A stretch of DNA of 64,000 nt from an uncultured Pseudobdellovibrionaceae bacterium (GCA_964384335.1 CAYLKN010000001.1:38496-102495); one strand, 5' to 3'; positions 7,018 through 49,200 are shown, counted from the first letter of the stretch. Notes: generated by a model from the sequence alone, not told the origin. A program made the numbers and translations.

Positions 7018-8712
7018 ATGAGTATTATAAGCATACCTGGTCTGGGTTTTGGTAAGAGTATCCTTCTGATAAATGATGATGAGCTCCACTTTTACAATGT
7101 CAGAGGGGGAATGGTTAACTATGTCAGGAGTATTCAGTGGGAAGAAAGTAATTTTATCGTTCAGGCAACGTCGATTATCCGTGATGAATGTGGCAACAAC
7201 CCGATAATTATACTGGATGATTCAAGTGAGCAGTTCTATCGGCGGGAAGCCATACCGAATATCGGCAGCGTTATGGATCGCGGGAATTTGGTTAAAAGAA
7301 AGCTCAATGTCGCCTTTCCAAACTATGATATTAAAGCAAGCCTGAAGTTGAAGGACAAATCCGTCTCTACAAAAGGGGACAAGGCAGTTGAAAATAAACC
7401 GGGCAAAACAACCAAATATCTTTTTGCCGCCATACCCGAAACCGATAAAACCCGTCTTGTTTATGAAATTGCGCGCCAGCTGACCGTTCCTGTCCAGTCA
7501 TATTTGCTTGTTCCGGTGGAAGCATCGACCATGATCAGGCTCTTGTCTAAAAAGATTTTTGGGTCGGGCAAAAACAAATCTCTCTGGACGATTTTTATAG
7601 GGCAGAACCAGAACGGTGGCTTGAGGCAGATCGTTACAAAGAACGGTGAACTTGCAATGACCCGTTTGACGCCGGTTGTGGATTCGTCGGCTGAGCCTGA
7701 TTTATGGGCAAATGAGGTTATGCAGGAATTCAAGGCAACACTGAAATATCTTGCGCGTTTTGATTATAATCCTGATGACGGGCTTGATGTTATTACAATC
7801 TGCAATCCGGAAACCGGTGAGTGCCTTGACGATCTAATAGACATACCCTGTAATTTCCGTTCACTGACCGTGGCGCAGGCCGCAGATATCATCAACGTAA
7901 AAATACATCCGGTGGACACAAAACATTATGTGGATCGGCTCCATGCCGGATGGGTGGCGCGAAAGCCTTCCATTACAATGGATATGAAGCCGAAAGAACT
8001 TGATGTTATTTCAAAGCCCCGGAAGGTTGCATCACTGATCTCACTTGCATTGGTAATCAGCCTTATCTATTTCGGCTACACTTTTATGGGGGCATCGGGA
8101 TCACTGATGAAAAAGCAGACGGAACTGCGCAATCTCCAACAGACACAGAACAGGCTTGATGCCGAGCTTGAAGATGAAATCGCAAAAATGAACAACCTTG
8201 GTTTTGACGTCAAGCTTATCAGGGCTGCCACCAGTACCTATAATGCCTATCAGGGCAGGGGGATAGAGTCTGTCGATTATATTCAGCGCATAGATACCGC
8301 ACTTGATAATCAGATAACATTAAAATTTATTTCTATGGATGTTGTGAAAACAAGTGTTTTTGAAGATGGATTCAGGGCGCTTTTAGGCAACGAAAGCGGT
8401 GAGGCCATAAGAATAAGATTGGGTATGCTTTTCCCCGGAGCCACAGATCCGGAAGACGGGAATGAGGAAGTTGACGATATTTCAAGACGTCTTAAGGATG
8501 AGTTTCCAAACCACAGGGTGCGGGTTACAAAATACCTCAAGGATATGACATTTGATTCTGAATTTACGGGTGAAGCCGGGCTTTCAGCCAGGGAAGAGCA
8601 ACAGGTTCAGGATTTCAGCGCAGAAATCGAAGTGGTTGGCAATATCAGCAGTGTTGATATGGATGTCTCTGAAAACAACTCGGGGCAAAATTCACGTCGC
8701 AACAATCGCTAG
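7018..8712 (+). CDS. Hypothetical bitopic membrane protein (large cytoplasmic domain, one TM helix, coiled coil, periplasmic domain)
   Basis: 564 aa. There is a single hydrophobic helix at about aa 337-359 (VASLISLALVISLIYFGYTFMGA), followed by a heptad-like segment (KKQTELRNLQQTQNRLDAELEDEIAKMNNL). I recognised no family. Confidence 0.6.
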   Translation: MSIISIPGLGFGKSILLINDDELHFYNVRGGMVNYVRSIQWEESNFIVQATSIIRDECGNNPIIILDDSSEQFYRREAIPNIGSVMDRGNLVKRKLNVAFPNYDIKASLKLKDKSVSTKGDKAVENKPGKTTKYLFAAIPETDKTRLVYEIARQLTVPVQSYLLVPVEASTMIRLLSKKIFGSGKNKSLWTIFIGQNQNGGLRQIVTKNGELAMTRLTPVVDSSAEPDLWANEVMQEFKATLKYLARFDYNPDDGLDVITICNPETGECLDDLIDIPCNFRSLTVAQAADIINVKIHPVDTKHYVDRLHAGWVARKPSITMDMKPKELDVISKPRKVASLISLALVISLIYFGYTFMGASGSLMKKQTELRNLQQTQNRLDAELEDEIAKMNNLGFDVKLIRAATSTYNAYQGRGIESVDYIQRIDTALDNQITLKFISMDVVKTSVFEDGFRALLGNESGEAIRIRLGMLFPGATDPEDGNEEVDDISRRLKDEFPNHRVRVTKYLKDMTFDSEFTGEAGLSAREEQQVQDFSAEIEVVGNISSVDMDVSENNSGQNSRRNNR

Positions 8713-23671: not shown

Positions 23672-23707
23672 TCTGTAACGCGTAAATGAAAATAAGGAAG
23701 CGGTAAT

Positions 23708-24436
23708 ATGAAACAGAAATATCTGGCAATTGTAACCGGCGGGACCAGAGGTATAGGTCTGGCCATAACAAAATCTTTGCGTGATATGGAATGCGATGTA
23801 ATTGCGTTCTATCAGGGGAATGAAGAGGCTGCGAAGAAATGCCGGCAAGAAACGAAAGCAAAAACGCTTAAAGTGAATATCACTAATTTTGAAGCCTGTC
23901 ATAAGGCGGTTGAAGAGATAAAGGAAAAACACGGCCAGATTCATATCCTGGTTAACAATGCCGGCATTACGCGTGATGGCACACTGCACAAAATGTCTCA
24001 GGAGAACTGGAACGAGGTTATCGATACAAACCTCAATTCATGCTTTAACATGTGCAGGGCCGTTATCCCCGATATGCGCGAACACCGCTATGGCAGGATT
24101 ATCAATATCAGCTCCATAAACGGGGAAAAAGGACAGTTTGGTCAAACAAACTATGCGGCGGCAAAGGCAGGAATGCTTGGTTTTACAAAAGCTTTGGCGC
24201 TTGAATCCGCATCAAGGGGCATTACAGTAAATGCAATATGCCCAGGCTATATTGAAACGGAAATGACTTCTGCGATGAGTTCTGAAGTTCTTGAAACTAT
24301 TATTCGTCAAATTCCCGCTGGACGTATGGGAAAACCCGAAGAAATCGGTGAGATGGTGGCTTATCTGGCGTCTAAAAACGCTGGGTTTATCAACGGGGCT
24401 GCTTTCGATATCAATGGCGGGCAGTATATGCGCTAA
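23708..24436 (+). CDS. phaB: Acetoacetyl-CoA reductase (SDR family)
   Basis: 242 aa with TGGTRGIG, NNAG and YAAAKAG (YxxxK) motifs. It lies directly after phaA. Confidence 0.88.
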   Translation: MKQKYLAIVTGGTRGIGLAITKSLRDMECDVIAFYQGNEEAAKKCRQETKAKTLKVNITNFEACHKAVEEIKEKHGQIHILVNNAGITRDGTLHKMSQENWNEVIDTNLNSCFNMCRAVIPDMREHRYGRIINISSINGEKGQFGQTNYAAAKAGMLGFTKALALESASRGITVNAICPGYIETEMTSAMSSEVLETIIRQIPAGRMGKPEEIGEMVAYLASKNAGFINGAAFDINGGQYMR

Positions 24437-31207: not shown

Positions 31208-31666
31208 ATGCCACAACAAAACACAACAAATGCATTCTGGAATAATGATTTTCTTAAATCCATGTCAGGCTTCTCAAGCTTCCCCATGGATACCAAATCT
31301 GTTGTTGATTCCGCCCGCAAAAATACGCAGGCCATGAATGATGCCATGAAACTATGCGGCGAAAACTCCCAGGCATTTATGAAACGCTGTACTGAAATTA
31401 TGTCTCAACTGGTCGAGGATCAATCTGCGCTTGCAAAAGAAATTATGAGTGAAGGCAGTCCTGAACAAAAAATTGCGAAACAGGCCGAAATGATGCGTAA
31501 AAATTATGAGAGGTCGGTTACAAATCTGCGTGAACTCTCTGATATGCTTAATAAATCCAACATTGAAGCCAGCGATCTTATTAATAAAAGAGTAACTGCA
31601 AGTTTCAGTGAAATTAAATCAATGCTTGAAAACGCAACGTCTGCTCAGAATAAAAAGTCAGCTTAA
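31208..31666 (+). CDS. phaP: Phasin family protein (PHA granule-associated)
   Basis: 152 aa and all-helical, with phasin-like composition. An AGGAGG RBS lies upstream and a strong terminator follows. Confidence 0.7.
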   Translation: MPQQNTTNAFWNNDFLKSMSGFSSFPMDTKSVVDSARKNTQAMNDAMKLCGENSQAFMKRCTEIMSQLVEDQSALAKEIMSEGSPEQKIAKQAEMMRKNYERSVTNLRELSDMLNKSNIEASDLINKRVTASFSEIKSMLENATSAQNKKSA

Positions 31667-32148: not shown

Positions 32149-34233
32149 TTACTGAAACATGCTTCTGTTGCCGTCCCAGAAACTGTCCCCTTCGGTAAAC
32201 CAGCTTTCCTGAGGATCATTAGGATTATATGGCACGTCGGAGTGATTAAACCAGATGTCCGAAACCTGTCCGACCGTTCCGTCTGCATATGTGAATGTCG
32301 AGCGGTGGCTTTCCCACTGGCCGTTAATGACGTTATCCACATACTCGGCGGTCAGATTGATCTCAGAGATATTCATCTGCATCAGGGACGACAGTTCATT
32401 TCCATCGGATATTCCGTCGCCGTTCTTGTCCTGCCAGAGCTGAAGATTACCAAACATATTATCATCCATGCTGATAAGTCCGTCCTGGTTGCTGTCAAGC
32501 TCAGCCAGATGGCTGAAGCCTTCAAGATGACCGCCAACATTTCCAAAAAGTTCGGTGGCATCGTTAATCATGCCGTCATTATTGCGATCAAAAACCAGAA
32601 GGGCATCATCAGGAGCAACCCAGGCCGTGAAATCTTCCGCATCTTTCATATCGACATCAAAGAACGCGTCCGACTGTGACAGATTGACCAGTTCGATACC
32701 GTCGCCGTCAAGGTCGAATACCAGCGGATCACCATCACCACCATCACCACCACCATCGCCACCATCGCCACCATCACCACTATTCGCAACTTGGCATGAG
32801 CTTAATGGTGGTGGGAACGTGTTGCAGACCTGCAGATCAACCGGATAGCATCCGTGCTCAACCCAGGCATGGGCCTGCATCCATTCTGCGCCGGTTGAAT
32901 GAAGCATAATTCTGTCATCGATAACAGTCGGCAGCAGATTGTCCGCAAGGTCGTTGTCTTCCACCAAATTCCAGTTTTCTCCGTCAGAGGCCAGAATAAC
33001 CGTTTCGGTCTGCTCAGAAAGTTCGGCCAGAGTTTCCGTTCCGACTTCGACTGTGACCGTTCCGTTTGAACTGTCCGTCTTTCTTACGAAGAAGAAATTA
33101 TCCTGATTTACAAAAGCCGAGGGCAGCTCGACAGTTGTATCCTGTCCTCCCGTGTTAACAACGATAAAGTTGCTGTCCATATCGGCATCGTAAGTAATGC
33201 CGTCTTTTGCACTCACATGATAATGTGTCGGGTAATCCATACGCGTCAGGACAAGTTCCCCGGAAAGATCGGGATTGCTCGTCGCTTCGCTGAGAACCAC
33301 TCTTTCACCTGTGGCCCCATCTGGTACAGGAAGCATGATCGTGGTTGCATCAAAGGAGGTGATGAATGCGTAAAACGGATTTTCGAAGCTTGTAATTGAA
33401 ACTTCCGATCCAAGGTTTTTTGCATTGTGCATCTGCCATGACGAACCTTCAGGAGGCATACCTTCGTGAATGTCTATAAACCCTGTAAAGTCGCTGTAGT
33501 CGCCCGGAGGGCCGGAGGGCATCATGACATCCTTTTCAGGGTGAAAGCTGCCGTCTGTTCTTTCGATCCATCGCAGTCTGTCGGGGTTTGATATGTTCCC
33601 AAGTCTCGTATATTCAAAATATCCCTGAGAAGTGTCCGATGAATTTGAATTGGCCAGTATTTTGAACATATCGTCTCCGGTGTTGCCGGAAATTTCCGAG
33701 CCGCCGGCGGAGTCAATGGTACAGTGGCCTTTAGCCGAGCCTGACGTGCATTCTGATCTTGCATTCAGGGTAATATCCGTTGGATCAAGCGGGTTGGCTG
33801 CAACGCTATCGCATTGATTGCTGTATGCCTGCCAGCATTGACCCTGGAGTGATCCTTCAACAAGTTCCCAACCTCCGTTTGCGTTGGGATATGAACATCT
33901 GAATGTTGCAACCGCATTTCCGCCCTGCGGTCCTCTGTATTCCAGAGAGATAGTGGAGCCGAAACGGGAATATCCTATTGCTGCAGGTGAATCTGCAAAG
34001 ACATTGCGCACATCTTCCGAATTTCCAAGATTCAGTGTAATACGGCCCATAATCGTATTGCCGGATGTTCTTCCCTCATCCCATTGGGCCTGAGCGGCTC
34101 TTTCAGAATATATAAACGGGGATATGGTGACCAGACCCGTCATGAGGCTGAGCGTGAGCCCTTTATATAATAGGTGATCTTTAAGTTCCCGTTTCAAGGT
34201 TCTCTCCTTTTCATTAATCCTTATTTTCATCAT
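32149..34233 (-). CDS. Large secreted protein with a Cys-rich N-terminal region, a (G/D)-repeat linker and C-terminal EF-hand-like calcium-binding loops
   Basis: It has a signal peptide ending AAQA|Q and the linker SGDGGDGGDGGGDGGDGD. The loops follow: PLVFDLDGDGIEL, DRNNDGMIND, DSNQDGLISMDD and DKNGDGISDGNE. The start is ambiguous (ATG 34233/34230, or TTG 34197 six nt after AAGGAG). Confidence 0.7.
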   Translation of the reverse strand: MMKIRINEKERTLKRELKDHLLYKGLTLSLMTGLVTISPFIYSERAAQAQWDEGRTSGNTIMGRITLNLGNSEDVRNVFADSPAAIGYSRFGSTISLEYRGPQGGNAVATFRCSYPNANGGWELVEGSLQGQCWQAYSNQCDSVAANPLDPTDITLNARSECTSGSAKGHCTIDSAGGSEISGNTGDDMFKILANSNSSDTSQGYFEYTRLGNISNPDRLRWIERTDGSFHPEKDVMMPSGPPGDYSDFTGFIDIHEGMPPEGSSWQMHNAKNLGSEVSITSFENPFYAFITSFDATTIMLPVPDGATGERVVLSEATSNPDLSGELVLTRMDYPTHYHVSAKDGITYDADMDSNFIVVNTGGQDTTVELPSAFVNQDNFFFVRKTDSSNGTVTVEVGTETLAELSEQTETVILASDGENWNLVEDNDLADNLLPTVIDDRIMLHSTGAEWMQAHAWVEHGCYPVDLQVCNTFPPPLSSCQVANSGDGGDGGDGGGDGGDGDPLVFDLDGDGIELVNLSQSDAFFDVDMKDAEDFTAWVAPDDALLVFDRNNDGMINDATELFGNVGGHLEGFSHLAELDSNQDGLISMDDNMFGNLQLWQDKNGDGISDGNELSSLMQMNISEINLTAEYVDNVINGQWESHRSTFTYADGTVGQVSDIWFNHSDVPYNPNDPQESWFTEGDSFWDGNRSMFQ
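32731..32782 (-). repeat. Imperfect GGT/GAT trinucleotide tract encoding the (G/D) linker
   Basis: The plus strand reads caccatcaccaccatcaccaccaccatcgccaccatcgccaccatcaccact. This is in-frame inside the CDS. Confidence 0.8.
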
Positions 34234-34377
34234 ACCTGATTTTGAAAATCTGATGCAAAATTTCAATATAATTTTACATATATTATTAGTTTTGCACGAA
34301 AGTATTAATAGAAAGTAAATAAAAATAAGTTTTCATAAAATTTTAGAAGTTTTCTGTATTTTTATTCATTCCGGATT

Positions 34378-35454
34378 TTATTCCGGATTGCAATCGCCTG
34401 GTATGCTTTCGTTACAGTAAAAAAAGACCGGAGCCTGGACCTGGTTTGTTGCGTTTACATCTCTGAGTGCATTAACATTTCTTAATGCATTAACATTTGC
34501 ATCCGAATTGACATTGCGTTCAGCACGGAGATTACCGCCGCCAACATGCAGTCTTGCACTGGGATCGGGCTGAACGACACCTACGCCCACACTGCTTTGA
34601 GGCCCGCTGCCTGGATTGCTGTCAAATTCCCGGAAAGAGATGTTTAGCTCTCCGGCTTCGTCAGTCATAAGCCAGGATGTTCCTTCACGCCTCACAAGTG
34701 TGTAAGAGACGACATCATCGAAATGATTGGCATCCAGACCGGATACCTTTTCTGAATAATCTCCATCCATAAACGTCGTTGCCTGGGCATCGCCAACAGT
34801 CAATATTTTAAAATCACAATTTTCGCGATCCAGCGCAGCCCCTTCGCTGCAAGCCATGGATGTTTCCCTCCCATAGCGGGATGTGGCACCTTTTCCGTCC
34901 GCGCCATGACTAACTATCACAAAATTGTAATCGTTCCCGATTTCTGTTCCGTCCGTATCAATAATCCTGATCTGACCGGCATTGTCGTCATATGTGCTGC
35001 TATCCGTTAATGCGGCTGTAACCGCATAGGTCAGTTTGTTGTCATGCGGGTCGTTACCGATATGAAATGGAAGTTTAAGAGTACTTACCGGTATTGCACC
35101 AATTATTACCGGTTGACCGGTCGGACCGCTTCCGTGGCCTGCTTTTGAATAAATTCCAGGCGAGCTGGTGTCGCAGGCGCTGCCAATCTTTAATCCCACA
35201 CCGTAATTTAAATCACCCGGCGCCAAAGAGGGGTCCGCAGGACATGGGAATTCTCCATTAACCCTTATATAATTCGCGATCGCCAGATGAACTTTATCAA
35301 ATATGCGCTCCTGCTCCACCCTTATCTGTGTTTTGCGGTAGAGATTATAGGCCTTGGCAAAGCCGGCAAGAATAAGGCCGAGAATCATGATAACCACCGC
35401 AAGCTCAATCAGAGTGAACCCGTTTTCTGAATTTTTTTTCCTAAATATTTTCAT
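34378..35454 (-). CDS. Oversized GspG-like pseudopilin / type IV pilin-like protein, paralogue 1 (358 aa)
   Basis: Its prepilin signal is MKIFRKKNSENG|FTLIELAVVIMILGLILAG, with Glu at +5. It has a GspG-like AIANYIRVNGEFPCP segment, a VIVSHGADGKG motif, a C-terminal hexad repeat and a CNESIPGDC loop. Confidence 0.75.
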   Translation of the reverse strand: MKIFRKKNSENGFTLIELAVVIMILGLILAGFAKAYNLYRKTQIRVEQERIFDKVHLAIANYIRVNGEFPCPADPSLAPGDLNYGVGLKIGSACDTSSPGIYSKAGHGSGPTGQPVIIGAIPVSTLKLPFHIGNDPHDNKLTYAVTAALTDSSTYDDNAGQIRIIDTDGTEIGNDYNFVIVSHGADGKGATSRYGRETSMACSEGAALDRENCDFKILTVGDAQATTFMDGDYSEKVSGLDANHFDDVVSYTLVRREGTSWLMTDEAGELNISFREFDSNPGSGPQSSVGVGVVQPDPSARLHVGGGNLRAERNVNSDANVNALRNVNALRDVNATNQVQAPVFFYCNESIPGDCNPE

Positions 35455-35487
35455 TGTCTTTTTTCTCTTTTTTCATGCTCATTCATG

Positions 35488-36537
35488 TTACGGAGCGCCT
35501 ACAGTTGCAAGAAAACGAAAATTTGTGGCATTTACCTGTCTTTCCGCAGTTACATTCCGGTTGGCGTTAACATTTTCTCCGGCGGTTACATCTTCGTCTG
35601 CATTAACGTCTGTTTCAGCCAGAATCTGTCCGCCAACATGAAGTTTTGCGGTGGGCGAGCCGGTTCCTATCCCGACATTTGTGTCCATGTTGCGATTTGA
35701 AATGTTCAAATCTCCCCCGCTTGTCGTTACGAACCAGAGGCCGCTTTCTTTTCTTGCAAGTGTATAGGAGATGAGATCATCAAAATGGCTGGGTTCATTA
35801 CCTGTTGCCAGTTCCGCATATTCACCGTCCATGAATGTGATGGCGCCCTGATAGGATACGGTCGGAAGTTTATAATTGCAGTTCTCCAGATCAAGGGCTG
35901 ATCCATCACAAGATCTGGCATTTTCAACACCCGCCCTTGTGGTTGATCCTTTGCCGTCCGGTCCGTGACTGATAATTACAAAACCGTAGTCGTTGTCTAT
36001 CTCGTTACCCGTGCCATCCACGATTCTAATTCTCCCTGCATTTCCGTCAAAACTCGCATCATCTGTGAGTATTTCCGTTACTGCATAGGTCAGCTGATTG
36101 TCATAGGCATCAGTCATAAAATGAAAAGGCAGATTTAATGCGCTGACCGGCAAAGCCCCGATCACAACACGGGATCCCGGAGTACCATTATCAAAACCGT
36201 AAATGCCGCTTACGCTGTCATCACATGTTGTCTCATCAACGGATTGTAACTCGTTTCCAAAATTTATATCTCCGGATCGTAAGGACGCATCCGCAGGGCA
36301 TGGATAAAAACCGTTCACACGAAGATAATCGGCAAGGGCGGCATGAACCGTTTTAAAAATATGCTCCTGCTCCGCCTGGACTTTATGTTTTTTGTAGAGA
36401 TCAAAAGCTTTTACAAAACCTGCAAGAATAAAACCGAAAATTATCATGACAATGGCAAGTTCCACAAAAGTGAAACCGCGCTCACGGCTTTTATCTGTTT
36501 CTTTCTTTCGCTCCATCTTCATTTTCAAAATCTTCAT
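35488..36537 (-). CDS. Oversized GspG-like pseudopilin / type IV pilin-like protein, paralogue 2 (349 aa)
   Basis: Its prepilin signal is …KSRERG|FTFVELAIVMIIFGFILAG. It has ALADYLRVNGFYPCP, VIISHGPDGKG and a C-terminal hexad repeat. It is collinear with paralogue 1. Confidence 0.75.
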   Translation of the reverse strand: MKILKMKMERKKETDKSRERGFTFVELAIVMIIFGFILAGFVKAFDLYKKHKVQAEQEHIFKTVHAALADYLRVNGFYPCPADASLRSGDINFGNELQSVDETTCDDSVSGIYGFDNGTPGSRVVIGALPVSALNLPFHFMTDAYDNQLTYAVTEILTDDASFDGNAGRIRIVDGTGNEIDNDYGFVIISHGPDGKGSTTRAGVENARSCDGSALDLENCNYKLPTVSYQGAITFMDGEYAELATGNEPSHFDDLISYTLARKESGLWFVTTSGGDLNISNRNMDTNVGIGTGSPTAKLHVGGQILAETDVNADEDVTAGENVNANRNVTAERQVNATNFRFLATVGAP

Positions 36538-36578
36538 AATAGTCTCACTTTATTTCCATACTGTATAACTAACCGCAC

Positions 36579-37814
36579 TCACGGGCATGCCGGATTGGAA
36601 GAGTTGTTATAGCAAAATTTAGGTGCGATTACGGACTGTCCGGCCCTTACATCCTGATTTGCCCTTACATCCTGACTTGCGTTGACGTTGTTGTTCGCAC
36701 GGATATCATCACCGGCCCTAATATCTTCGCCGACCCTTACTCTGTCTTCAGGATCAAAAGCATTCTGACGTACGCCTATGGCCAGTCTTGCGTTCGCATT
36801 GAATATAAGATTGTTAACAGTGCCCGAAGCCGGTGCGTATTGCCATGTCTGGTCCTCACGAATGTATCCATATAATGAAAATTCTGTTCTGTCGTCGTAA
36901 TGACCGTTTGCATCCGCACTGGCCAGATCCGTAAATGGCATGCTTCTGAATTCGGCGTCATCGTCACAGTTTTCAAAGTCAAGTGCACTCGCGCCCGTGC
37001 ACGGAATACGGGTTCCGTTTTTGGCATATCCGCCTTTCCTGTCACGGCCGTGCGAAACAAGCACATAATGAACAGGCTCCGCCGTTGCATCAAAGCCGTT
37101 TTCGTCCACAACGGTTATGGCACCTGAATCGAGCGCGTCCGCAATTTCCTCAAAATTTTCGGGTACTGGTGCAAGACCGGCGGTGATTGTATCGAGCGCG
37201 GTTGAATTCTGGGTTACTGCGTAAGTGAATTTGCTGCCGTACACATCGACAGTATGATTGCTGTTCAGACATTTGTACCGATCGGGAAGGGAGACGGATG
37301 TGTTCTCGTTTGCGCCTGTTTCTTTTAAAACCTGGCTTGCATCATTAAGAAAATTCTGGATCGTTTCCTGTGTGTTGTCGGCCCATCCGTCAAACTGTCC
37401 GTCACCGCAGCCGAGAGTCTCATTAATATCCTTGAACGGTACTGTGCCGATCAGAACATTTTCTCCTCCCACACCTGCGGTTACTGTTAAATTAAGGCCG
37501 TCACAAATCCCGGATGCCGGATTGTAATCTCCTTCTCCAAAGTTTGTGTCCCCTTCCTGGAGCCTCGGGTCGGAAGGGCATGGATAAAAGCCGCGCACTC
37601 TGTAAAACTCCGCTATCCCTTCCTGTATTCTGTCTGTCCGCTGGTTCATAAGATAGCCGCTTACAAGAGTTTCAACTTTAAACATATGCGCCATGGCCGC
37701 TGTAAATATCCCAAGAATGATAATAACAACGGCAAGTTCGAGAAGAGTAAAGCCGGCTTCTTTGGCGGGTGATCCGTTCATTTCAACTTTATTTCCATAC
37801 CAGAATTTCAACAT
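36579..37814 (-). CDS. Oversized GspG-like pseudopilin / type IV pilin-like protein, paralogue 3 (411 aa)
   Basis: Its prepilin signal is …SPAKEAG|FTLLELAVVIIILGIFTAA, and an alternative ATG at 37781 gives a 10-aa leader. It has GIAEFYRVRGFYPCP, VLVSHGRDRKG, a C-terminal hexad repeat and a CYNNSSNPAC loop. Confidence 0.75.
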   Translation of the reverse strand: MLKFWYGNKVEMNGSPAKEAGFTLLELAVVIIILGIFTAAMAHMFKVETLVSGYLMNQRTDRIQEGIAEFYRVRGFYPCPSDPRLQEGDTNFGEGDYNPASGICDGLNLTVTAGVGGENVLIGTVPFKDINETLGCGDGQFDGWADNTQETIQNFLNDASQVLKETGANENTSVSLPDRYKCLNSNHTVDVYGSKFTYAVTQNSTALDTITAGLAPVPENFEEIADALDSGAITVVDENGFDATAEPVHYVLVSHGRDRKGGYAKNGTRIPCTGASALDFENCDDDAEFRSMPFTDLASADANGHYDDRTEFSLYGYIREDQTWQYAPASGTVNNLIFNANARLAIGVRQNAFDPEDRVRVGEDIRAGDDIRANNNVNASQDVRANQDVRAGQSVIAPKFCYNNSSNPACP

Positions 37815-37970
37815 ATACTTTCACATACCTCATATTGGGAAAATATAATTAATTTTCCGTAAACGCCTTATAAATTTAATAAATTATAGCATTGAAGACA
37901 GCAGTATTGAAAATTTTTGAATTACAGTGGAAGTTCATATATAAGTTCAGATCGACAAAAGAAAGATACC

Positions 37971-38777
37971 ATGGCAATTGACGTTTTTGAAAATGCGGGG
38001 AAAGGCATAAATGCAGTTTGGGATAACAGATCTGTTTTATTAAAGCTCGCGCTCATCCCCGTGTTGATAAAAATAGGCTGTCACGTGCTTATTTACATTA
38101 CACAGTTTCAGGATGAATTGTTATGGCAGGGAATTATAAGAATCCCGGATTTTGTTACAGAAGGCTGGCTTTTATGTATTCTGATATATCTTCTGTCTGC
38201 GGACGGTAATGATGCGCCTGACTCCGCTAAAAATGCGTTTAAGTCAATAAAAACAAACACAAAAGCAATTCAAGCCGGCGTTATCGCTTACGTACTGATC
38301 CAGTTGCTTGTGATCGGGTACAATGCGCTTTTGTTCGAGAATTTTGGGGAATATATGCGTGCAGGTCACGAAAATGAGATTGAAGAAGATGCCCAGGTCG
38401 GACCTGCACAGATTGCCCTTATGCTGTTCGCGTTTCTTGTTGTTATCGCCTTTTTCAAGTATCTGTGGCTTTACATTCCAATTGCCAGGGGATGGGGTCT
38501 GAGCGGGACGCTTCGTATGCTTGGCGGTAATGGTCTTTCGTTAAGATTCCTTTTTTTATGGGCACTGTGTATTGTTCCTGTTACGGTCATTTTTATCGGT
38601 GTTGTCGGTCTTATACTTGAAAATTCCGGAGGTGATCTTAGTTCTGCGCCTAAAGGCGTCAGTTTTGTGGTTTTGATTTTTCAATCCTTATACGAAACCA
38701 TAACGGCCCTGATTTTAACGTCCGCTTTCTTTTTCGCATTTCAAAGTCTCGATATGAAAGCGCGGGGTATAAACTGA
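37971..38777 (+). CDS. Hypothetical polytopic membrane protein
   Basis: It has about 6 hydrophobic helices. I prefer the ATG at 37971 over the TTG at 37917. I recognised no family. Confidence 0.5.
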   Translation: MAIDVFENAGKGINAVWDNRSVLLKLALIPVLIKIGCHVLIYITQFQDELLWQGIIRIPDFVTEGWLLCILIYLLSADGNDAPDSAKNAFKSIKTNTKAIQAGVIAYVLIQLLVIGYNALLFENFGEYMRAGHENEIEEDAQVGPAQIALMLFAFLVVIAFFKYLWLYIPIARGWGLSGTLRMLGGNGLSLRFLFLWALCIVPVTVIFIGVVGLILENSGGDLSSAPKGVSFVVLIFQSLYETITALILTSAFFFAFQSLDMKARGIN

Positions 38778-38793: not shown

Positions 38794-39465
38794 ATGAGTC
38801 AGGATCCCAGAATTGAAACTGTCGAGAAAATCATGCCGAAGAGTGGGCATGTGTCTAAAATTGTTGTTTTTCTGCATGGTCTGGGTGCAGACGGAAAAGA
38901 TCTTATTGATATAGGTGCACATTGGCGGGACAGCCTTGATAACACGCTTTTCCTGTCCCCGGATGCTCCGTTTCCATGCGATATGGCACCTTACGGCCGT
39001 CAGTGGTTTTCCCTTCAGAACCGGAGCATCGAGACTATAAACGAAGGTGTGCGCAGTTCTGCCCCGGCATTAAACGTATTTCTTGATTCGTGTTTGAAAG
39101 AACATGGTCTGGATGCTGCTGATATGGCGGTTGTCGGCTTTTCACAAGGAACCATGATGGCGCTTTATTCACTTCCCCGGAGATTAAAGGCCTGTGCAGG
39201 TATTTTGGGCTATTCAGGTTTGCTTCCCAATGAGGCGGTTTTTGAAAAGGAATGTATTTCCAGGCCGCCGGTTGTTTTGGTTCACGGTAGAAACGACCAG
39301 GTTGTGCCGTATTTAGGAACAGAAAAAGCCTTCAGCGTTCTGAAAGCAAACAGTTTCGAAGTAAAAAAACATATACTGCCCGGTCTTGAACACGGTATTA
39401 ATCCTGAAGGGCTTGAGATCGGCAAGGACTTTCTGAGAACCCGCCTTGGTATACAGCAGCTTTGA
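38794..39465 (+). CDS. Phospholipase/carboxylesterase family alpha/beta hydrolase
   Basis: 223 aa with VVFLHGLGADGKDL, the nucleophile elbow GFSQGTMMAL and, late in the sequence, HG..D.VVP and EHGI. Confidence 0.8.
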   Translation: MSQDPRIETVEKIMPKSGHVSKIVVFLHGLGADGKDLIDIGAHWRDSLDNTLFLSPDAPFPCDMAPYGRQWFSLQNRSIETINEGVRSSAPALNVFLDSCLKEHGLDAADMAVVGFSQGTMMALYSLPRRLKACAGILGYSGLLPNEAVFEKECISRPPVVLVHGRNDQVVPYLGTEKAFSVLKANSFEVKKHILPGLEHGINPEGLEIGKDFLRTRLGIQQL

Positions 39466-41781: not shown

Positions 41782-44700
41782 ATGCGTTTATTTTTCTCAG
41801 TATTGTTATTCAGTGTTTCATTTTTTGTATTGTCTGTTCCGGGCTTTATTGCGGGCCAGGGTCAAATTTCATTTGCGCAGTCATTTCCCGAATTCACTGT
41901 AACGCTCAATTCACGCGAACGTGCCTACAGTATTGTGGACAAGGCTCATTATATTAAAGACAATGACAAAACTCTGTCACTTGAGGATGCACGTAACATC
42001 TTTTTTGAAAAAAGACGTTATGAACTGCCAGGCAAAGGCCTGATAAAAACGCTTGAGAACAATTCAACTTACTGGCTTTTAGTGAATATTGAAAACAGAA
42101 CGTCTCATGAAGAATGGATTTTGGATTTCGGTGATGTTTTCAAAGGACGAAACGGTAGTTTCAAAGATATAAAAATATACGATGCAAATTCGGGTGCAAT
42201 ACAATTTGATCTCAATGAAAACAAAGACCAAACTTTGCTTGAGGGAATTTCTTTCAGTATCCCCCCTGGTGAGGACAAGCTTGCGGCGTTAAAAATTTCA
42301 TCCCAGGGTTTTTTTCCGGTAATTCATAATTTAACCGTTCTGGCCCCAAACAACTATATTACAGAACAATCCGCCAAGTTTACCTTTGCTAATCTGGTGA
42401 TGTTTCTGCTTGCGTTACTGTTTTTTGTCTATCTGTATTGCTTTTTGATAACTAAAAATCAGGCCCATCTTTATTTTGCCGGATATTTCATTTTTGCTTT
42501 ATTTTCCCTGATTTTTTATGAGGCTGTCTTTTCTTTGCCGGACTGGCTATCAACTGCTTTATCTCCAATCCTTCTATCCGGGCTCGCGATTTGCGCATTG
42601 GGGTATCATAAGGAAAACTATGAAAATGTTCTTGGGCTTAGAATTGGCCAACTGTTAATTCATACGCTGGCCGGATCTTTTGTAATTCTTGCAATTGCCT
42701 CATTTATAACCGGATTTGGAATATTTTTTATTCCCGCCTTTTTCCATGTTCTCCTTCTTGCACTGCTTGTGTTCAATGCCGTGCTGGCCTTTACTGACCA
42801 TAATCGGGCCCGAGAAAGTAACTACGTCGAAACTGCGGGATGGTTGGCGGCGTTTGCCGGCTATTTTCTGACCGCAGGTGCAAGTTATGGCGTTCTGCCT
42901 TTTTCTCCGGGCTTCCTTCTGCCTGCATTCTGGATTGGCGTTATCATTCAGGGATTGCTTAACATTGCGGACCACAGAAATCTTTTCAGTATGGGAGATG
43001 AAGACGCTTTATCGAGAGGTAAAAAACAGATTCTCCCGATGCAGGAGCAGCTTGAGGCTTTGATACAGGAAAAGGAAAATACGGAATATAAAAGACTTCT
43101 CCGTGTAGTGGATAGGGAGCGAAAAATGATGGCGCGCCTGCGGGAACGTGAAGTCGAGCAGACGGAAGAAATGAGAGCGGCAAAGGAAGCCGCTGATGAG
43201 GCTAACCGCTCCAAATCCGCCTTTCTTGCTGTTATAAGCCATGAAATACGGACACCGATGACGGGTATTATGGGCATGGTTAAGCTTCTGCAGGACAGTA
43301 AGTTAACGAAAGAACAACATGAATATGCTGCAACAATCGAGGAATCGGGCGATGCAATGCTTTCTTTGTTAAACGACCTTCTTGATTTTGAAAAAATTGA
43401 GAGCGGCAAGATTGAACTTGAACTTATTGATTTTGACTTGCACCGCCTTATACAAAGCATCGTAACTCTGATGAGAGGCCATGCCTCTATCAAATCCAAT
43501 ACAATCAAGGCGGATTTAGATGAAAGTGTTCCGCGATACGTTAAGGGTGATCCGAAAAGACTTAAGCAGGTTCTTTTGAATTTATCCGGGAATGCCATTA
43601 AATTTACGGAGAACGGCAGTATCAGGATACAAGTCAAAAGTCTGGATGAAGATAAGGACGAAACAAAAGATATGCACAGTCTTTATTTTTCAGTAGAAGA
43701 TACAGGCATTGGTATATCGAAAGACGCCCAGTCAAATCTTTTCAATCCTTTCACTCAGGCTGATCCGAGTATTTCCAGAAAATATGGAGGTACAGGTCTG
43801 GGTCTTGCAATATCCCAGAGACTTATCCAGGCAATGGGCGGATATATTGCGGTTAACAGTACTGAGAGGGAAGGAAGTACGTTTTTCTTTACAATCAGCC
43901 TGCCCAGGGGCAGAAGCGAGCAGGTTGAAATCCTGGAAACGGAAGATGACGGACAGGGGGACAGAGAAGGTATTCCCCTTAAAATTCTTGTGGTTGACGA
44001 TAACAGGATCAATCAGAAAGTGATGATAGGCCTTCTTGAGCGCGTCGGGCATTCCGTGGTGGCCATAGGAACCGCTGTTGAAGCTTTGCAGAAGGTTGAG
44101 CAGGAGATCTGGGATGTTGTCCTCATGGATATTGAATTGCCGAATATGAGAGGGGATGAAGTTGCGAAACGCATAATTGCCAATAAAAATCCGGATGTTT
44201 CTGACACGCCAATAATTGCACTGACCGGAAACGTGGATGATGAGGATGCAAAATCATACAGGGAAGCAGGCATGATTGATGTAATCGGCAAACCCGCAAA
44301 GCCTGAGACGTTAAACAGGGTGCTCTCTAAAATCCAGCCAAGGTCCGGAAAATTCCAGGAGTCTGAAAGACCAGGAAATAACATGAAAGGTAAAACGGGA
44401 GCAAAAATGGGGAATTCTCTGGTTTCTTCTTCCGACTTGCGAGAAGAAACACTCGTTGTTGGCGACGACGGTGAAATGCGGCACACGGCATATAAACTAA
44501 CGGAAAACGATGACGATAAGTCTTTTGCAAAAATTAATGAAGCCTTTGATCTGGAAGATGACGAAGACTCTGACACCGATCAGCAACAGCCAAAACGTCA
44601 GACTGATGAAAACAGGGCTGCGGATGATGGAGAAGGGATGAGCGCGGAAGAAATCTTCAATGTTGAAATGCTTCAGAGCCTCAAGGATTACATGGATAAA

Positions 44701-44988
44701 GACCAGCTTTACGAGCTTCTGGATGGGCTTTGGGACAAAAATGCGGAAATCATGGATCGTCTTGATTCTGCCCTCGAAAGCAGGGATTTTGCGGACATTA
44801 AGAAGGCTGGCCATGAATTAAAGGGGATGGCCGGAAATTTTGGCCTTTCCCAGATACAGGACATGGCCGATAAACTTGAAAGATATGCCGCGCAAGAACA
44901 TATTGACGAGCTGACCAGACTTATTGCCAATCTGCCGCAGGCAAACAGAACTGTAAAAGAAAAAATTGACCAGTGGGTTGTTGATTGA
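41782..44988 (+). CDS. Hybrid sensor histidine kinase/response regulator with a 7TMR-DISM-type sensor, REC and Hpt domains
   Basis: 1068 aa with a signal peptide, a periplasmic domain, 7 TM helices and a coiled coil. It has an H-box (SHEIRTPMTG), N/G boxes (NLSGNAIKFT, GTGLGLAIS), a REC domain (ILVVDDN…LMDIELPNM) and a C-terminal Hpt (GHELKGMAGNFG). Confidence 0.9.
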   Translation: MRLFFSVLLFSVSFFVLSVPGFIAGQGQISFAQSFPEFTVTLNSRERAYSIVDKAHYIKDNDKTLSLEDARNIFFEKRRYELPGKGLIKTLENNSTYWLLVNIENRTSHEEWILDFGDVFKGRNGSFKDIKIYDANSGAIQFDLNENKDQTLLEGISFSIPPGEDKLAALKISSQGFFPVIHNLTVLAPNNYITEQSAKFTFANLVMFLLALLFFVYLYCFLITKNQAHLYFAGYFIFALFSLIFYEAVFSLPDWLSTALSPILLSGLAICALGYHKENYENVLGLRIGQLLIHTLAGSFVILAIASFITGFGIFFIPAFFHVLLLALLVFNAVLAFTDHNRARESNYVETAGWLAAFAGYFLTAGASYGVLPFSPGFLLPAFWIGVIIQGLLNIADHRNLFSMGDEDALSRGKKQILPMQEQLEALIQEKENTEYKRLLRVVDRERKMMARLREREVEQTEEMRAAKEAADEANRSKSAFLAVISHEIRTPMTGIMGMVKLLQDSKLTKEQHEYAATIEESGDAMLSLLNDLLDFEKIESGKIELELIDFDLHRLIQSIVTLMRGHASIKSNTIKADLDESVPRYVKGDPKRLKQVLLNLSGNAIKFTENGSIRIQVKSLDEDKDETKDMHSLYFSVEDTGIGISKDAQSNLFNPFTQADPSISRKYGGTGLGLAISQRLIQAMGGYIAVNSTEREGSTFFFTISLPRGRSEQVEILETEDDGQGDREGIPLKILVVDDNRINQKVMIGLLERVGHSVVAIGTAVEALQKVEQEIWDVVLMDIELPNMRGDEVAKRIIANKNPDVSDTPIIALTGNVDDEDAKSYREAGMIDVIGKPAKPETLNRVLSKIQPRSGKFQESERPGNNMKGKTGAKMGNSLVSSSDLREETLVVGDDGEMRHTAYKLTENDDDKSFAKINEAFDLEDDEDSDTDQQQPKRQTDENRAADDGEGMSAEEIFNVEMLQSLKDYMDKDQLYELLDGLWDKNAEIMDRLDSALESRDFADIKKAGHELKGMAGNFGLSQIQDMADKLERYAAQEHIDELTRLIANLPQANRTVKEKIDQWVVD

Positions 44989-45000
44989 TTTACTTGCCGT

Positions 45001-45519
45001 ATGGTTATGCAGGCAAGAGGTTCGTCCCGTATTATTCTCAAAGAAACGGTTGTTAGTAAGCAGGGCTGCGCGCAATTTGCCCGTAAATGCGTGGCGGAGC
45101 TTGTAAAAGGGGATATCGTTTGCCTGCATGGTACTCTGGGCGCGGGCAAAACATTTATAGCCAGAGAGATGATCAGAGCGATTACCGGGGATGACCTGGC
45201 CGAAGTTCCAAGTCCGACCTATACACTTGCCCAAACCTATGATTCTCAGGATTTTCGAATATGGCATTTTGACTTCTACCGTCTGGAAGATGCTGAAGAA
45301 ATATATGAAATCGGATGGGATGAGGCGATATCCGGCAATCTTGTCCTGATAGAATGGCCTGAAAAAGCTGAGAATTTAATTCCCGCCTACGCAAAGCATC
45401 TTTATATTGAGTTTGATAAGGCCGATGAGGAGACAGAAAAAAATTTACAGGAAAATGAGACAAGACATCTTATACTGACGGATACAACCAGGGACTTGGA
45501 AAAAGCGCGAAAACCATGA
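45001..45519 (+). CDS. tsaE: tRNA t6A37 biosynthesis ATPase TsaE
   Basis: It reads LHGTLGAGKTFIAREMIRAI…VPSPTYTLAQTY…HFDFYRL, the YjeE/TsaE hallmarks. Confidence 0.85.
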   Translation: MVMQARGSSRIILKETVVSKQGCAQFARKCVAELVKGDIVCLHGTLGAGKTFIAREMIRAITGDDLAEVPSPTYTLAQTYDSQDFRIWHFDFYRLEDAEEIYEIGWDEAISGNLVLIEWPEKAENLIPAYAKHLYIEFDKADEETEKNLQENETRHLILTDTTRDLEKARKP

Positions 45520-46262
45520 AACATGAAAAAGCGGCAGTAAAACAGGCCATAATACTGTGTGCCGGCTATGGCCGCAGAATGGCACCTTTGACTGACAAAA
45601 TGCCAAAGCCGCTTGTCAGTGTTGCGGGCCGTCCAATTCTCGACTACATCCTTGATGGACTGCGTAAAGAGGGAATTGAAAAAATAGTAATGAACACGCA
45701 TTATCATGCGCATCAAATCAAAGATTATGTATCGGGAATTACGGATTCGAAAGCGCCCGAAATTATCATCTCGCATGAAGAAAAACTTCTGAACACCGGG
45801 GGCGGCATTTTGAAAGCCCTGACATATCTGGATGATGATACAGTCTTTGTATTAAGCGGTGATTCCATATGGCATGACAATTACGGTACAACTCTTTTGA
45901 GAAAGATGGAATCAGTCTGGGATCCTCAGAAAATGGATTGCCTGATTGCGCTCCAGAAAACTGACAGGGTAAGAGTTGGAAAAGCAGTCGGGGACTATAA
46001 TATTGACGAAAATGGCAAATGCATAAGAAGTCCTGATAAAACGGGAGACTGTATGTTTACCGGTATACGCATTCTTCACCGCCGATTATTTCCAGAGTGT
46101 ATCCCTGAACAGCCGTTTTCTTTTCTTGATCTGATGGATAAAGCTGAGGGCGGCGGCCGCCTGCACGGTATAATAAACAGTGCGGGTGACTGGTATCATC
46201 TTTCCACACCTGCTGATATCTGTACACTTTCGAACTTGATGCTTGGACGGGTACCGGCCTGA
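45516..46262 (+). CDS. Nucleotidyltransferase family protein (MurU-like sugar-1-phosphate nucleotidyltransferase)
   Basis: It has an AIILCAGYGRRMAPLTDKMPKPLV N-terminal motif. Its position between tsaE and addB matches many alphaproteobacteria. Confidence 0.7.
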   Translation: MKHEKAAVKQAIILCAGYGRRMAPLTDKMPKPLVSVAGRPILDYILDGLRKEGIEKIVMNTHYHAHQIKDYVSGITDSKAPEIIISHEEKLLNTGGGILKALTYLDDDTVFVLSGDSIWHDNYGTTLLRKMESVWDPQKMDCLIALQKTDRVRVGKAVGDYNIDENGKCIRSPDKTGDCMFTGIRILHRRLFPECIPEQPFSFLDLMDKAEGGGRLHGIINSAGDWYHLSTPADICTLSNLMLGRVPA

Positions 46263-46270
46263 ATAGTTTT

Positions 46271-49200
46271 ATGCAGAAAATAGGAAAAAAACCTTCCCTT
46301 TACACAATACCCCCGGGCTATCCTTTCCTGACCTCTCTTGCGAAAGGATTGCTGGAGGAGACGGTGGGCAAAACGGAAGAACTAGGACAATATCTGGTTT
46401 TTTTACCAACGCGCAGGGCGTGCCGGGAGCTGCAGACTGAACTTCTGCGCCTTACGGACGGCAAACCGCTTATTCTTCCCGGAATTCAGCCTTTGGGCGA
46501 TATTGATGCCGATGAGCTGTTTTTTCTGGACGGCAGTGCAGGCGAAACTATTGCAAGGATTCCCCCGCCAATACCGCGAATGAAGCGATTATTCCTTTTA
46601 TCGCGTCTTGTCAGTGCCTTGCCCGGTTATGGTGCGGATCAGATTCAGGCCATGAAACTGGCTGATGCCCTGGGCCGCTTTATTGATCATGTCCATGCCG
46701 AAGGTCTGGATCTTAAAAATCTGGAAACAATCGTATCTGAAGAATTTGCGGAACACTGGCAGATATCACTTGATTATCTGTCTGTACTGGGTAAGGCGTG
46801 GCCGGAGATACTGGCTGAAAACGGTTTTATTGATCCTGCGGATTACAGAAACCGGATATTGAATGCCGCCTCGGGGGCGTTCGAAAATTCACCGCCTTCA
46901 GGGCCTGTAATAGCGGCTGGTTCGACCGGATCGCTGCCGGCTACACGGAACTTTTTAAAGACAATTTCCAGAATGAGCGACGGGCGGGTTATTCTTCCCG
47001 GGCTCAATCAGTATTGCAGTGAGACAATCTGGGAAAATATTGACGAGCTGCATCCGCAATACGCCCTTAAAAATCTTGTTAACACATTGGAAACGGACCG
47101 GAGTGAAATTGAAATCTGGCCGTTTCTGACGGTTCCCGAGGCAGGTTTAAGCCAGCCAGGCCTGACGCGCAAAATAATCGAAACCCGGCAAATGCTTGCC
47201 TCTTGCTTCATGTGCCCGGCGGATACACTCGCCGTCCGGCAAGAAGATAATGGATATGACTCAAGGATTTCAGGAAATAATCTTGAAAAGGCACTTGAAG
47301 ATCTGACCTATTGCGCCTGCATGTCTGAGGAGGAGGAGGCAAAAGTGATTGCACTTATTCTCAGGGAAACCCTTGAAACGCCTCACAAAACTGCGGCTGT
47401 TGTTACACCCGACAGGAAAATTGCCAGGAGAATAATGGCGCAGTGTCTGCGCTGGGGCATTACTATTGAAGACAGTGCGGGGTGCGCCCTTTCACATACA
47501 CGTACAGGTCAGTTTCTGAAAACGGTTATGGACTGTGTGCTGGACAGGTTTTCGCCTTTAACTCTCCTGGCACTTTTAAAACATGAATTCTGCAATCCCG
47601 GAACGGAACCGGAAACGTACAGGCATGTTGTCGGAAATCTTGATTATTATCTGCGGGGATTGAGGCCAGCCGACGGGATTCAGGGTGTTCGTGACAGAAT
47701 ACGCGAAAAGGAAAAAGATCATGACTACGATAAGGCGATATTTTCAGGTATTTACACTTTGCTTGATAAGCTTGAAGAGGCCTTCAGGCCGCTTGCGAAC
47801 ATCTCAGGCAAAGGTGAGGCTCGTTTCTCAGACTGGATCAGCGCGCATCTGGAAGTTTGTGAAACATTGTCATCCTCATACAAAAGATTATGGGGCGATG
47901 ATGAAGGGGAGGCAGCCGCCGGATTTTTTGCGGCCCTTTCAGAAAACTCCGGTTTGACGAAAGAAATGAATGGTCATGCCTATCGTGTGCTTCTTGATCA
48001 TCTCATGAACGATGTTGTCGTACGGCCAAAATTCGGCATGCATCCCAGACTTAAGATATACGGCCAGCTTGAGGCGCGCCTTCTGCATGCGGATGTGCTT
48101 GTCCTTGCAGGACTTAATGAAGGACAGTGGCCGGAAAATCCGGCGGCTGATCCATGGATGTCTCGGCCTATGCGAAAAGCATTTGGTATGACGTTGCAGG
48201 ACATAGGTATCGGCCAGTCGGCACACGATTTTGTGGAGTATTTCTGTGCGCCTCGGGTTATTTTGACCCGTTCGGAAAAAAATGAGGGAATTCCGACCGT
48301 TCCTTCGCGGTGGATACAGCGTCTGAGCATGACCTTGAAAGCTTTTGTCACTGAAGGCAAGGCGAGTAAGGAGCAGGGCTCTGAAGAGTTTGGTCTGGGG
48401 CCGGGGTTTTACATTGAATACGCAAGATCGCTGGATTGCCACCGATCTCCGATTCAGGCCTGGCCAAGACCTTCTCCCCGCCCGCCTGTAAACAAAAGGC
48501 CACGCAGATTGTCGGCAACGAAAATTGAAACATGGATGCGCGACCCTTATGCCCTTTATGCGGAGAAGATTTTGCGCCTTGCAAAGCTCGATCCGCCAGA
48601 CAAGGAACCGGGCGCACTTGAAAAAGGCGTATGGATCCATGATATTCTGGAACGGTTTGTAACGGCGTATCCTGATCAAATGCCAGATAATGCGGCCGAT
48701 ATTCTTTTATCCTATGGCTGGGAATTGCTTGGCGACATGCGTACGGACAAAACGGTTGCGGGATACTGGTGGCCAAGATTTGAAAATATTACACACTGGT
48801 TTGTCCGTAATGAACTGGACAGGCGACAACAATACAGATCCGCAGTAATCGAGGAAAAAGGAAGTACGATTCTGGATGGTCCTGCAGGACCTTTTGAACT
48901 TACCGCAAAGGCGGACAGGATTGACAGATCAATCAGGAACGGTCTGACCCTTATAGATTACAAAACCGGACAGCCGCCCACAAAGAAAGACGTGATAAGA
49001 GGAATTGCGCCGCAGCTCGGAATTGAGGCGTTGATTTTAAAACAAGGGGGGTTTGAAAATTGTGGGGCAGGAGGGGAGATTGAATCTCTTGAGTACTGGG
49101 TCCTGAAAGGGCGCGCGCCGGCAGCGGAGGTTACGGAGATAAATCCGGGAAAAGATAAAACTCTTGATGATTTTGTTTGTTCGGTCGAGGAAGGAATAAC

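Follow-up and report, generated by a model that had tools for sequence, protein, structure and literature searches.

Why should three consecutive genes for unusually large prepilins lie far from the core genes that would assemble them into a filament, and what might their products do? The question is raised by a stretch of 64,000 nucleotides (hereafter the window) from an uncultured Pseudobdellovibrionaceae bacterium (GCA_964384335.1 CAYLKN010000001.1:38496-102495), in which three minus-strand open reading frames (ORFs) encode proteins of 411 (36579..37814), 349 (35488..36537), and 358 (34378..35454) amino acids, separated by gaps of only 41 and 33 nt. The original prediction, made from the sequence alone, described them as an orphan module of expanded GspG-like pseudopilins, serving either as a new fibre or adhesin or as cargo-like substrates of a distant system. 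We find that all three are prepilins of a large family that has no curated domain model, and we consider it probable that they are minor pilins of a retractile type IV pilus, forming together with a conserved fourth gene (32149..34266, minus strand) a dispersed tip cassette.

Pilin identity of the three proteins

The three proteins, which we designate types A (411 aa, the first gene of the cassette), B (349 aa), and B' (358 aa), each open with the predicted class III signal. Their leaders end in Gly and run into the sequences AKEAG|FTLLELAVV, SRERG|FTFVELAIV, and NSENG|FTLIELAVV, respectively, with Gly at position -1, a hydrophobic residue at +1, Glu at +5, and thereafter a hydrophobic helix of about 20 residues. 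All three exceed the cut-offs of Pfam PF07963 N_methyl (27.2, 26.3, and 28.0 bits for A, B, and B' versus 21.2) and of TIGR02532 (17.7-24.0 bits versus 16.3), and a search of the window in all six frames revealed no further prepilin-type motif. In alignment, identity to the 358-aa protein is 54% and 35% for the other two; the blocks PCP.D, TYAVT, ALD.ENC, and H[FY]DD are invariant among the three, as are four core cysteines (C71, C94, C202, and C213 in 358-aa numbering), and both the cysteines and the shared motifs are invariant or nearly so in a 45-member family alignment. These signals, taken with the alignment, bear out the tandem array of real, unusually large paralogues that had been proposed. 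Two further blocks were described too broadly: G[AT][IL]PV..L.LPFH is present in two of the proteins but not in the third, and F[VI]..SHG.DGKG is absent from the 411-aa protein, which reads YVLVSHGRDRKG at this point, although the shorter SHG.D.KG is found in all three.

The large insertions by which their size had been explained exist only in the 411-aa protein, which consists of the leader, the family core domain with two true insertions, a joint region, and six hexapeptides. The two shorter proteins owe their length to a distinctive core domain of about 200 aa, common to relatives of 240 aa, and to a C-terminal extension: in the 349-aa protein the core is followed by the joint motif NVGIGTGSPTAKLHV and six hexapeptides, and in the 358-aa protein (core at residues ~60-262) by a degenerate joint, six hexapeptides, and a Cys-x-Cys tail. 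The hexapeptide array that ends each protein had escaped the first reading of the sequence, as had the fourth gene. An AlphaFold2 (AF2) model of the 358-aa protein, with pLDDT >90 over residues 10-250, predicts a 52-residue helix (15-66) and then a beta-rich head; a Foldseek search of this model against the PDB returned nothing at E<=0.001, the best weak matches being type IV pilins at E=0.4-9.

The kinship to GspG covers the prepilin signal and the alpha1 helix and ends at the 'YP' turn. The GspG model TIGR01710 gives 19.6, 19.3, and 16.3 bits (cut-off 88.85) and the GspH model 17-23 bits (cut-off 80), in both cases over the helix region only, and Pfam T2SSG has no match to the window pilins at E<=1. 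When a 45-sequence family profile was aligned by hhalign with a Pseudomonas aeruginosa XcpT sequence, only residues 6-71 were paired (probability 97%), leaving the calcium loop unaligned. Because the alignment is confined to these residues, SHGxDGKG is not the calcium loop of GspG (SxGxDGxxGG...D), to which it had been likened. No GspG structure was among the Foldseek matches of the 358-aa model. Unlike GspG, moreover, the window pilins lack a T2SSG domain, are 2.5-3 times larger, and lie away from gsp genes, none of the gspC-M operon having been found in the window. Among the four cassette proteins there were no matches to GspI, GspJ, or GspK, those to GspH fell below the cut-off, and Pfam PilY1 had no match at E<=1.

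A mobile or phage origin of the pilin genes was considered but rejected, as their GC content is that of the surroundings and their flanks are alphaproteobacterial housekeeping genes. Promoter and terminator scans of the window gave counts not above those in shuffled sequence, so that co-transcription is neither supported nor contradicted.

An uncurated pilin family, its filament machinery, and the four-gene cassette

Searching with the full-length 358-aa protein yielded 71 clusters, mostly from alphaproteobacterial metagenome-assembled genomes (MAGs) and from Micavibrio aeruginosavorus. With the core alone as query (residues 60-262, excluding the generic helix), 2,532 representative clusters were found at E<=1e-3 and 595 at E<=1e-10. 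The lengths of these core-domain proteins range from 225 to >1,500 aa, and their signature, PCPAD...TYAV...SHGxxGxG...ENC...FDD, spans the ~200 homologous residues that follow the helix in the window pilins. The alpha1 helix with its Glu at +5 is kept across hundreds of members. Short relatives end directly after the FDD..W block, whereas the window pilins run on for about 100 aa of joint motif and hexapeptides. Since no Pfam or NCBIfam model covers the core, this is a large pilin family without a curated domain model; at present only its 27-residue N-terminal motif is recognised, and the core merits a curated family model.

A scan of reference genomes for family members, using a three-sequence alignment as query, together with an analysis of neighbouring genes, ties the family to a specific type of filament machine. 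In approximately 35 betaproteobacterial and gammaproteobacterial loci (including L013, L063, L068, and L051), a family pilin of about 240 aa belongs to one operon of the order T2SSE-T2SSF-M-N-O-GspK-like-family pilin-one or two GspG-like major pilins, where M, N, and O are names that we have given to three of its genes. Pfam confirms T2SSE, with an MshEN domain and hence an MshE-type ATPase, and T2SSF; among the NCBIfam models, the ATPase and the platform protein fall below the GspE, PilB, GspF, and PilC cut-offs, and the operon's M, N, O, and GspK-like proteins match no Pfam or NCBIfam model when scanned. This filament system thus also appears to be without a curated name. The window pilins align with the family member of the Gallionella operon (FAM238) at E=7.8e-19 (358 aa), 8.7e-15 (349 aa), and 5e-5 (411 aa).

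Enlarged members of the family occur as arrays of two or three genes in Micavibrio-like Alphaproteobacteria. In three loci (L006, L007, and L012), a gene for a major-pilin-like protein is followed by three family genes; two arrays (L012 and L025) lie near PilT/PilU (TIGR01420, 417-470 bits versus a cut-off of 319), and L025 additionally carries T2SSE, T2SSF, and an M gene. The proximity of these retraction ATPases points to a retractile pilus rather than to a secretion pseudopilus. The cassette itself keeps the same order, A-B-(B')-large secreted protein, in the window, in Micavibrio, and in the locus L004, while its flanks differ among genomes and consist of housekeeping genes. The 411-aa protein has its orthologues in the first cassette genes of Micavibrio (444 aa, E=5.6e-72) and L004 (432 aa, E=9e-34), and the genes that follow type A in these three cassettes constitute a second orthologous group.

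In the cultured relative M. aeruginosavorus ARL-13, the counterparts are GMV_901-904, matched by gene length and by the neighbours RecQ, MutS, and a large sensor kinase, as at the cassette locus L001; the adjacent hypothetical gene GMV_905 has no counterpart in L001. Expression of these orthologues is enriched in the attack phase: the attack/attachment expression indices given in the Micavibrio study for GMV_901-905 are 41.6/18.3, 20.5/2.7, 26/2.7, 29.5/4.1, and 61.7/3.8, and for most ARL-13 housekeeping genes attack-phase expression is near zero. That study places GMV0902 and GMV0903 among 'pili-related' genes and describes dispersed pil genes, with three operons encoding eight prepilin-type proteins. 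A full machine is found elsewhere in the ARL-13 genome at GMV_1534-1544 (a secretin, two PilT-like genes, a type IV leader peptidase, T2SSF, and T2SSE), beside which lies the gene of a highly expressed 247-aa prepilin (GMV_1530, index 196.5). It follows that separation from the machine is the normal state of such cassettes, and to call the module an orphan overstates the case: the machinery of its relatives is encoded elsewhere or next door, dispersed clusters of minor pilins are common, and the window has a homologue of one assembly gene.

The array is nonetheless distant from core assembly genes, as had been noted. When nearly all ORFs of 120 aa or more in the window were scanned with Pfam, T2SSE, T2SSF, secretin, and prepilin peptidase were not found. 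An exception to the lack of machinery is a 564-aa ORF at 7018..8712 (plus strand), a candidate dispersed pilus-assembly component. It matches the L025 gene directly after T2SSE-T2SSF (BLASTP E=1.2e-33) and the betaproteobacterial M family (hhalign probability 99.1%, E=1.5e-18, 431 columns), and it has no Pfam or NCBIfam match. The predicted layout of a cytoplasmic domain, one transmembrane helix, a coiled coil, and a periplasmic domain resembles that of GspL or of a PilM-PilN fusion. Flanked by purM and ftsK, the ORF stands alone at a distance of 26 kb from the cassette, and this M-type homologue is the window's only share in the association with a filament machine that is seen for the relatives.

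The fourth gene encodes 705 aa when read from a TTG start (682 aa in the public record), and its product is homologous to those of the genes that follow the pilin arrays in Micavibrio (E=4.7e-14) and L004 (E=7.7e-17). The protein begins with a predicted Sec-type signal, followed by a conserved N-terminal domain of about 250 aa in which the motifs GDDMF and MxPSGPPGD occur; next come a GDG-rich linker and DxDxDG repeats of a calcium-binding-like type. This last part varies by genome: its place is taken by a DLSGS-motif region in Micavibrio and, in L004, by repeats rich in Cys. PilC/PilY1 and modular pilins are reported to be built alike, with a constant docking domain and exchangeable outer modules, and we regard the fourth protein as a candidate tip-associated adhesin. 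Residues 511-677 match phrog_3677, a phage family annotated as 'protease' (E=1e-26), and the precomputed Pfam assignment is PF26745 'SPM'. Homologue searches with the whole protein, and also with its N-terminal part alone, gave itself and one weak match, the search being swamped by calcium-repeat words; an AF2 model from a three-sequence alignment was unusable (mean pLDDT 31.8). A short-period DNA repeat at 32728-32780 (periods 6, 9, 12, 15, and 21) encodes the linker GDGGDGGDGGGDGGDG before the DxDxDG repeats. The idea that the domain of the fourth gene is universally linked to pilins was not borne out, since in P0073 it stands alone among toxin-antitoxin and integrase genes.

The C-terminal tails and the MAT fibre motif

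Each window pilin ends in six hexapeptides (xxDVxA) followed by an aromatic F.[FY] motif. In the 411-aa protein they read GEDIRA, GDDIRA, NNNVNA, SQDVRA, NQDVRA, and GQSVIA, then PKFCY (36612..36740); the joint end and tail of the 349-aa protein are encoded at 35515..35643 and the tail of the 358-aa protein at 34414..34551, all on the minus strand. Tandem DNA repeats of 18 bp (about two copies, 82-95% matches) at 34457-34498 in the 358-aa gene and at 36643-36680 and 36703-36737 in the 411-aa gene suggest recent duplication of units and, possibly, a variable number of repeats.

In most family members, the core is followed by the joint motif NVGIGTxxPxxKLHVxGxIRA and then by either hexapeptides or a Cys-rich module of about 80 aa; the motif was found in 74 of 215 family proteins, with 80 occurrences as compared to 2 in shuffled sequences. 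Against solved structures, the family profile matched 8OND (E=3.5e-10, three repeats), 8OL4, 8OML, 8OJN, and 8ON4, in every case at the joint motif, and the match to 8OND persisted (E=2.3e-5) when the profile was built from the eight closest sequences, which include two window proteins. All five structures are MAT homotrimeric fibre adhesins of Bdellovibrio, where every trimeric beta-helix domain begins with the motif (PMC10769870). At the level of sequence, then, a fibre motif is common to this pilin family and the MAT fibres. Single-sequence searches of the tails against PDB sequences gave no meaningful matches, and at the joint motif PHROGs returned weak matches (E=0.004-0.03) to families whose function is unknown.

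One relative carries the theme much further. The 1042-aa prepilin of an uncultured Micavibrio (L018, 6779-9907) has the family core, five modules of about 130 aa that each open with the motif, the sequence SDARLKTNI, a Peptidase_S74 domain (39.5 bits versus a cut-off of 22), a coiled coil, and a C-terminal hydrophobic helix. Peptidase_S74 serves trimeric phage tail fibres as their intramolecular chaperone, and this protein reads as, in effect, a tail-fibre-like adhesin fused to a pilin; we take IPR030392 to denote the same S74 domain, so that pilin fusions bearing it would share this architecture. In the window proteins, Pfam found no S74 domain.

Tail type is uniform within a cassette, being of the hexapeptide kind in the window, L001, and L004 and Cys-rich in L002, L006, L007, and L012. 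In L004 (8715-11068), two paralogues that are about 30% identical overall have a nearly identical 27-aa tail block (NLTVNDPGGTGNGNIDADGDIT versus NLTVSDPGGTGNGTIDADGDIT), which suggests either gene conversion or a constraint on the tails to match each other. One could envision the three tails co-folding into a single heterotrimeric, tail-fibre-like triple beta-helix at the pilus tip. The six hexapeptides in each tail, the concordance of tails within a cassette, the L004 block, and the kinship to obligate trimers are consistent with such a fibre; we put it forward as possible but doubtful.

A candidate pilus tip, its rivals, and its precedents

If the three proteins are minor pilins, as we think probable, their function can be pictured as follows. 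Each pilin would be inserted into the inner membrane, and a PilD-type prepilin peptidase, encoded elsewhere, would cut after the leader Gly. The three paralogues would then bundle through their N-terminal helices into a complex that primes assembly and remains at the tip, with their trimeric-beta-helix-like C-terminal tails pointing outward from it. The Sec-exported fourth protein would dock by its conserved N-terminal domain and offer a variable binding module, here the calcium-binding repeats; the pilus would attach to another cell or surface, probably prey, and then retract. The tip location, the hetero-oligomer, the docking of the fourth protein, and the binding target are suggested by analogy with PilIJK and PilY1, with the modular pilins of Streptococcus sanguinis, with the CofB/TcpB trimers, and with the Myxococcus Kil 'Tip' clusters. 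An adhesin or fibre role, which had been raised for these proteins, looks plausible, but as a variant of a known theme and not as a new kind of system. That they are cargo-like substrates, the other role raised, is unlikely, since all three keep Glu at +5 and a pilin-type helix and their short relatives sit inside filament operons.

Several observations weigh against this picture. All three pilins retain Glu at +5, and the top subunit of a canonical tip (of the GspK or PilX type) lacks it; nor is there a GspK-like gene in the cassette. The resemblance to MAT is a match over a short motif of about 35 aa: single window proteins reach no better than E~0.65-1.9 against the MAT structures, each has one motif and not a series, and that of the 358-aa protein is degenerate, while the AF2 model predicts disorder in the same protein from residue 255 onwards, that is, in the tail. 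By Foldseek against the PDB, the modelled core domain is without a significant structural neighbour. The domain of the fourth gene is found away from pilins as well (P0073). Finally, the window's organism is represented by 68.7 kb of sequence, and its peptidase and machine, like its lifestyle, are presumed.

The three proteins might instead be pseudopilins of a type II secretion system (T2SS), forming a periplasmic piston or its tip, with the fourth product as secreted substrate. The ATPase and platform protein of the betaproteobacterial operon do score best against the GspE and GspF models, albeit below their cut-offs, the associated major pilins have a GspG-like N-terminus, and in Micavibrio, according to the paper on it, a T2SS is predicted but for GspC, G, H, and K, which were not annotated. 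We consider this unlikely, because the window pilins have no T2SSG domain and their hhalign likeness to GspG ends at residue 71, because PilT/PilU, a feature of pili and not of T2SSs, occurs beside the cassettes of L012 and L025 and in the Micavibrio machine cluster, and because the extensions of some relatives, up to 1,000 aa long and fibre-like, Cys-rich, or S74-bearing, would be unfit for a periplasmic pseudopilus.

To about the same degree we doubt a thick pilus of large pilins in which the proteins would serve as alternative major subunits or be incorporated into the shaft. Subunits with neighbours above them typically have Glu at +5, as all three do, large major pilins exist (e.g., the 208-aa PilA of Myxococcus), and the Micavibrio orthologues are expressed at a moderate level and not just in traces. 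The fixed A-B-B' order of diverged paralogues (35-54% identity) across genomes is, however, typical of minor-pilin sets; related loci fill the slot of the major pilin with separate GspG-like pilins of 210-280 aa, GMV_1530 beside the Micavibrio machine is far more highly expressed than the cassette, and in models of modular pilins, bulky modules at the C-terminus do not fit the packing of the shaft (PMC8179133). Least probable is that these are membrane-anchored or released surface proteins that are merely processed through the prepilin peptidase pathway and enter no filament. Although no machinery adjoins them in the window and their core is unlike any solved pilin head, the conservation of the alpha1 helix and Glu at +5 across hundreds of family members argues for assembly, as does the position of the short members between GspK-like and major pilin genes in filament operons.

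Placing the genes at a pilus tip has several precedents. Similar in layout is the Kil Tad pilus of Myxococcus xanthus, whose KilL/M/N 'Tip' clusters encode a predicted heterotrimeric tip that contacts prey (PMC12075869): there, too, three enlarged minor-pilin genes carry extra domains, and a genome holds several clusters, some far from the machine, much as ARL-13 has several prepilin operons. Kil is, in contrast, of the Tad kind (type IVc) and has a pilin type of its own, with no demonstrated sequence kinship to the cassette, which has the classical G|FTLIE signal, relatives associated with PilT/PilU and T2SSE/T2SSF, and as its own feature a fourth, non-pilin gene. The GspH/I/J/K, FimU-PilVWX, and PilIJK sets with PilC/PilY1 are alike in that several minor pilins are followed by a large, Sec-exported, calcium-binding modular adhesin (PMC13533445, PMC7541494). 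Such complexes, known to prime assembly and to stay at the tip, are like the cassette encoded apart from the motor genes (PMC13533445, PMC7541494); unlike them, the cassette encodes three paralogues of one family, none of which belongs to the families of the known sets or lacks Glu5.

The modular pilins PilB and PilC of S. sanguinis likewise carry a module grafted onto the C-terminus and are expected at the tip (PMC8179133). The window pilins, too, join an extra C-terminal module to a pilin module, and L018 has five such modules and S74. A survey by Raynaud et al. in 2021 lists pilin fusions to IPR030392, and the tip pilins CofB and TcpB trimerise at the tip (PMC8179133). The cassette differs from the modular pilins in that its pilin module of about 250 aa has no database signature and its extension is a short fibre-like stub without a recognisable domain, and from CofB/TcpB in having three paralogues instead of a homotrimer from one gene. 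The MAT fibres of Bdellovibrio bacteriovorus share the NVGIGTxxPxxKLHVxG motif, variable tips, attack-phase expression, and, with some relatives, an S74 end (PMC10769870). These proteins, about 1000 aa long, combine a conserved N-terminal anchor domain of their own with many beta-helix domains (PMC10769870), whereas the window pilins, at 349-411 aa, have a pilin N-terminus in place of that anchor and one motif with six hexapeptides. The paper on MAT fibres gives their surface anchor as unknown and makes no mention of pilins or Micavibrio (PMC10769870).

Dispersed minor-pilin operons, modular pilins (presumably including S74 fusions), and three-pilin tips in predators are thus already known. 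In the literature searched, we found no description of the core family without a curated model, the four-gene cassette, or the sequence link to MAT. The question touched on here is how Micavibrio and other epibiotic predators recognise their prey and keep hold of it. In the sole genome-scale Micavibrio study the orthologues are simply listed as 'pili-related' and attack-phase expressed; the conserved four-gene cassette defined here offers a concrete candidate for a prey-binding tip. If the tip reading holds, two unrelated lineages of predators would share one fibre module that is anchored differently, and host range would have natural determinants in the tails and the fourth protein, both of which vary. 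Should the doubtful heterotrimeric fibre also prove real, a MAT-like adhesin would sit directly on the retractile pilus of Micavibrio-type bacteria, a mechanistic link would join MAT-type fibres to type IV pili, and swapping of cassettes would provide a route to altered prey range.

Upstream of the cassette lies a divergent 286-aa ORF (37917-38777, plus strand) for a predicted multi-spanning membrane protein, which has no family match and no homologue in the loci compared. A carboxylesterase gene follows (38794-39465, plus strand, 1 kb upstream of the cassette), whose product is 48% identical to one in the Micavibrio MAG L011, where it lies 6 kb upstream of a family pilin; the ARL-13 carboxylesterase GMV_1545 adjoins a pilus ATPase gene. 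This proximity to pilin and pilus genes may be a synteny remnant or a coincidence.

The proposed kinship of the window's organism to Micavibrio rests on the distribution of the pilin family, on RecR, which is 55-56% identical to that of two cassette-carrying MAGs, and on gene orders shared with ARL-13: FtsK-LolA-FAD/NAD oxidoreductase-RecR (8791-13253) corresponds to GMV_175-178, and sensor kinase-TsaE-nucleotidyltransferase-AddB-AddA (41782-52907) to GMV_121-128. As these orders are perhaps widespread in Alphaproteobacteria, they are weak evidence for placement. Scans of the window for tRNAs and against Rfam gave no matches. A polyhydroxybutyrate gene set at 17596-24436 and 31208-31666, comprising two phasins, a PhaR-type regulator, a depolymerase-like hydrolase, a thiolase, and an acetoacetyl-CoA reductase-type dehydrogenase, indicates that the organism stores carbon, which may bear on whether its predation is obligate.

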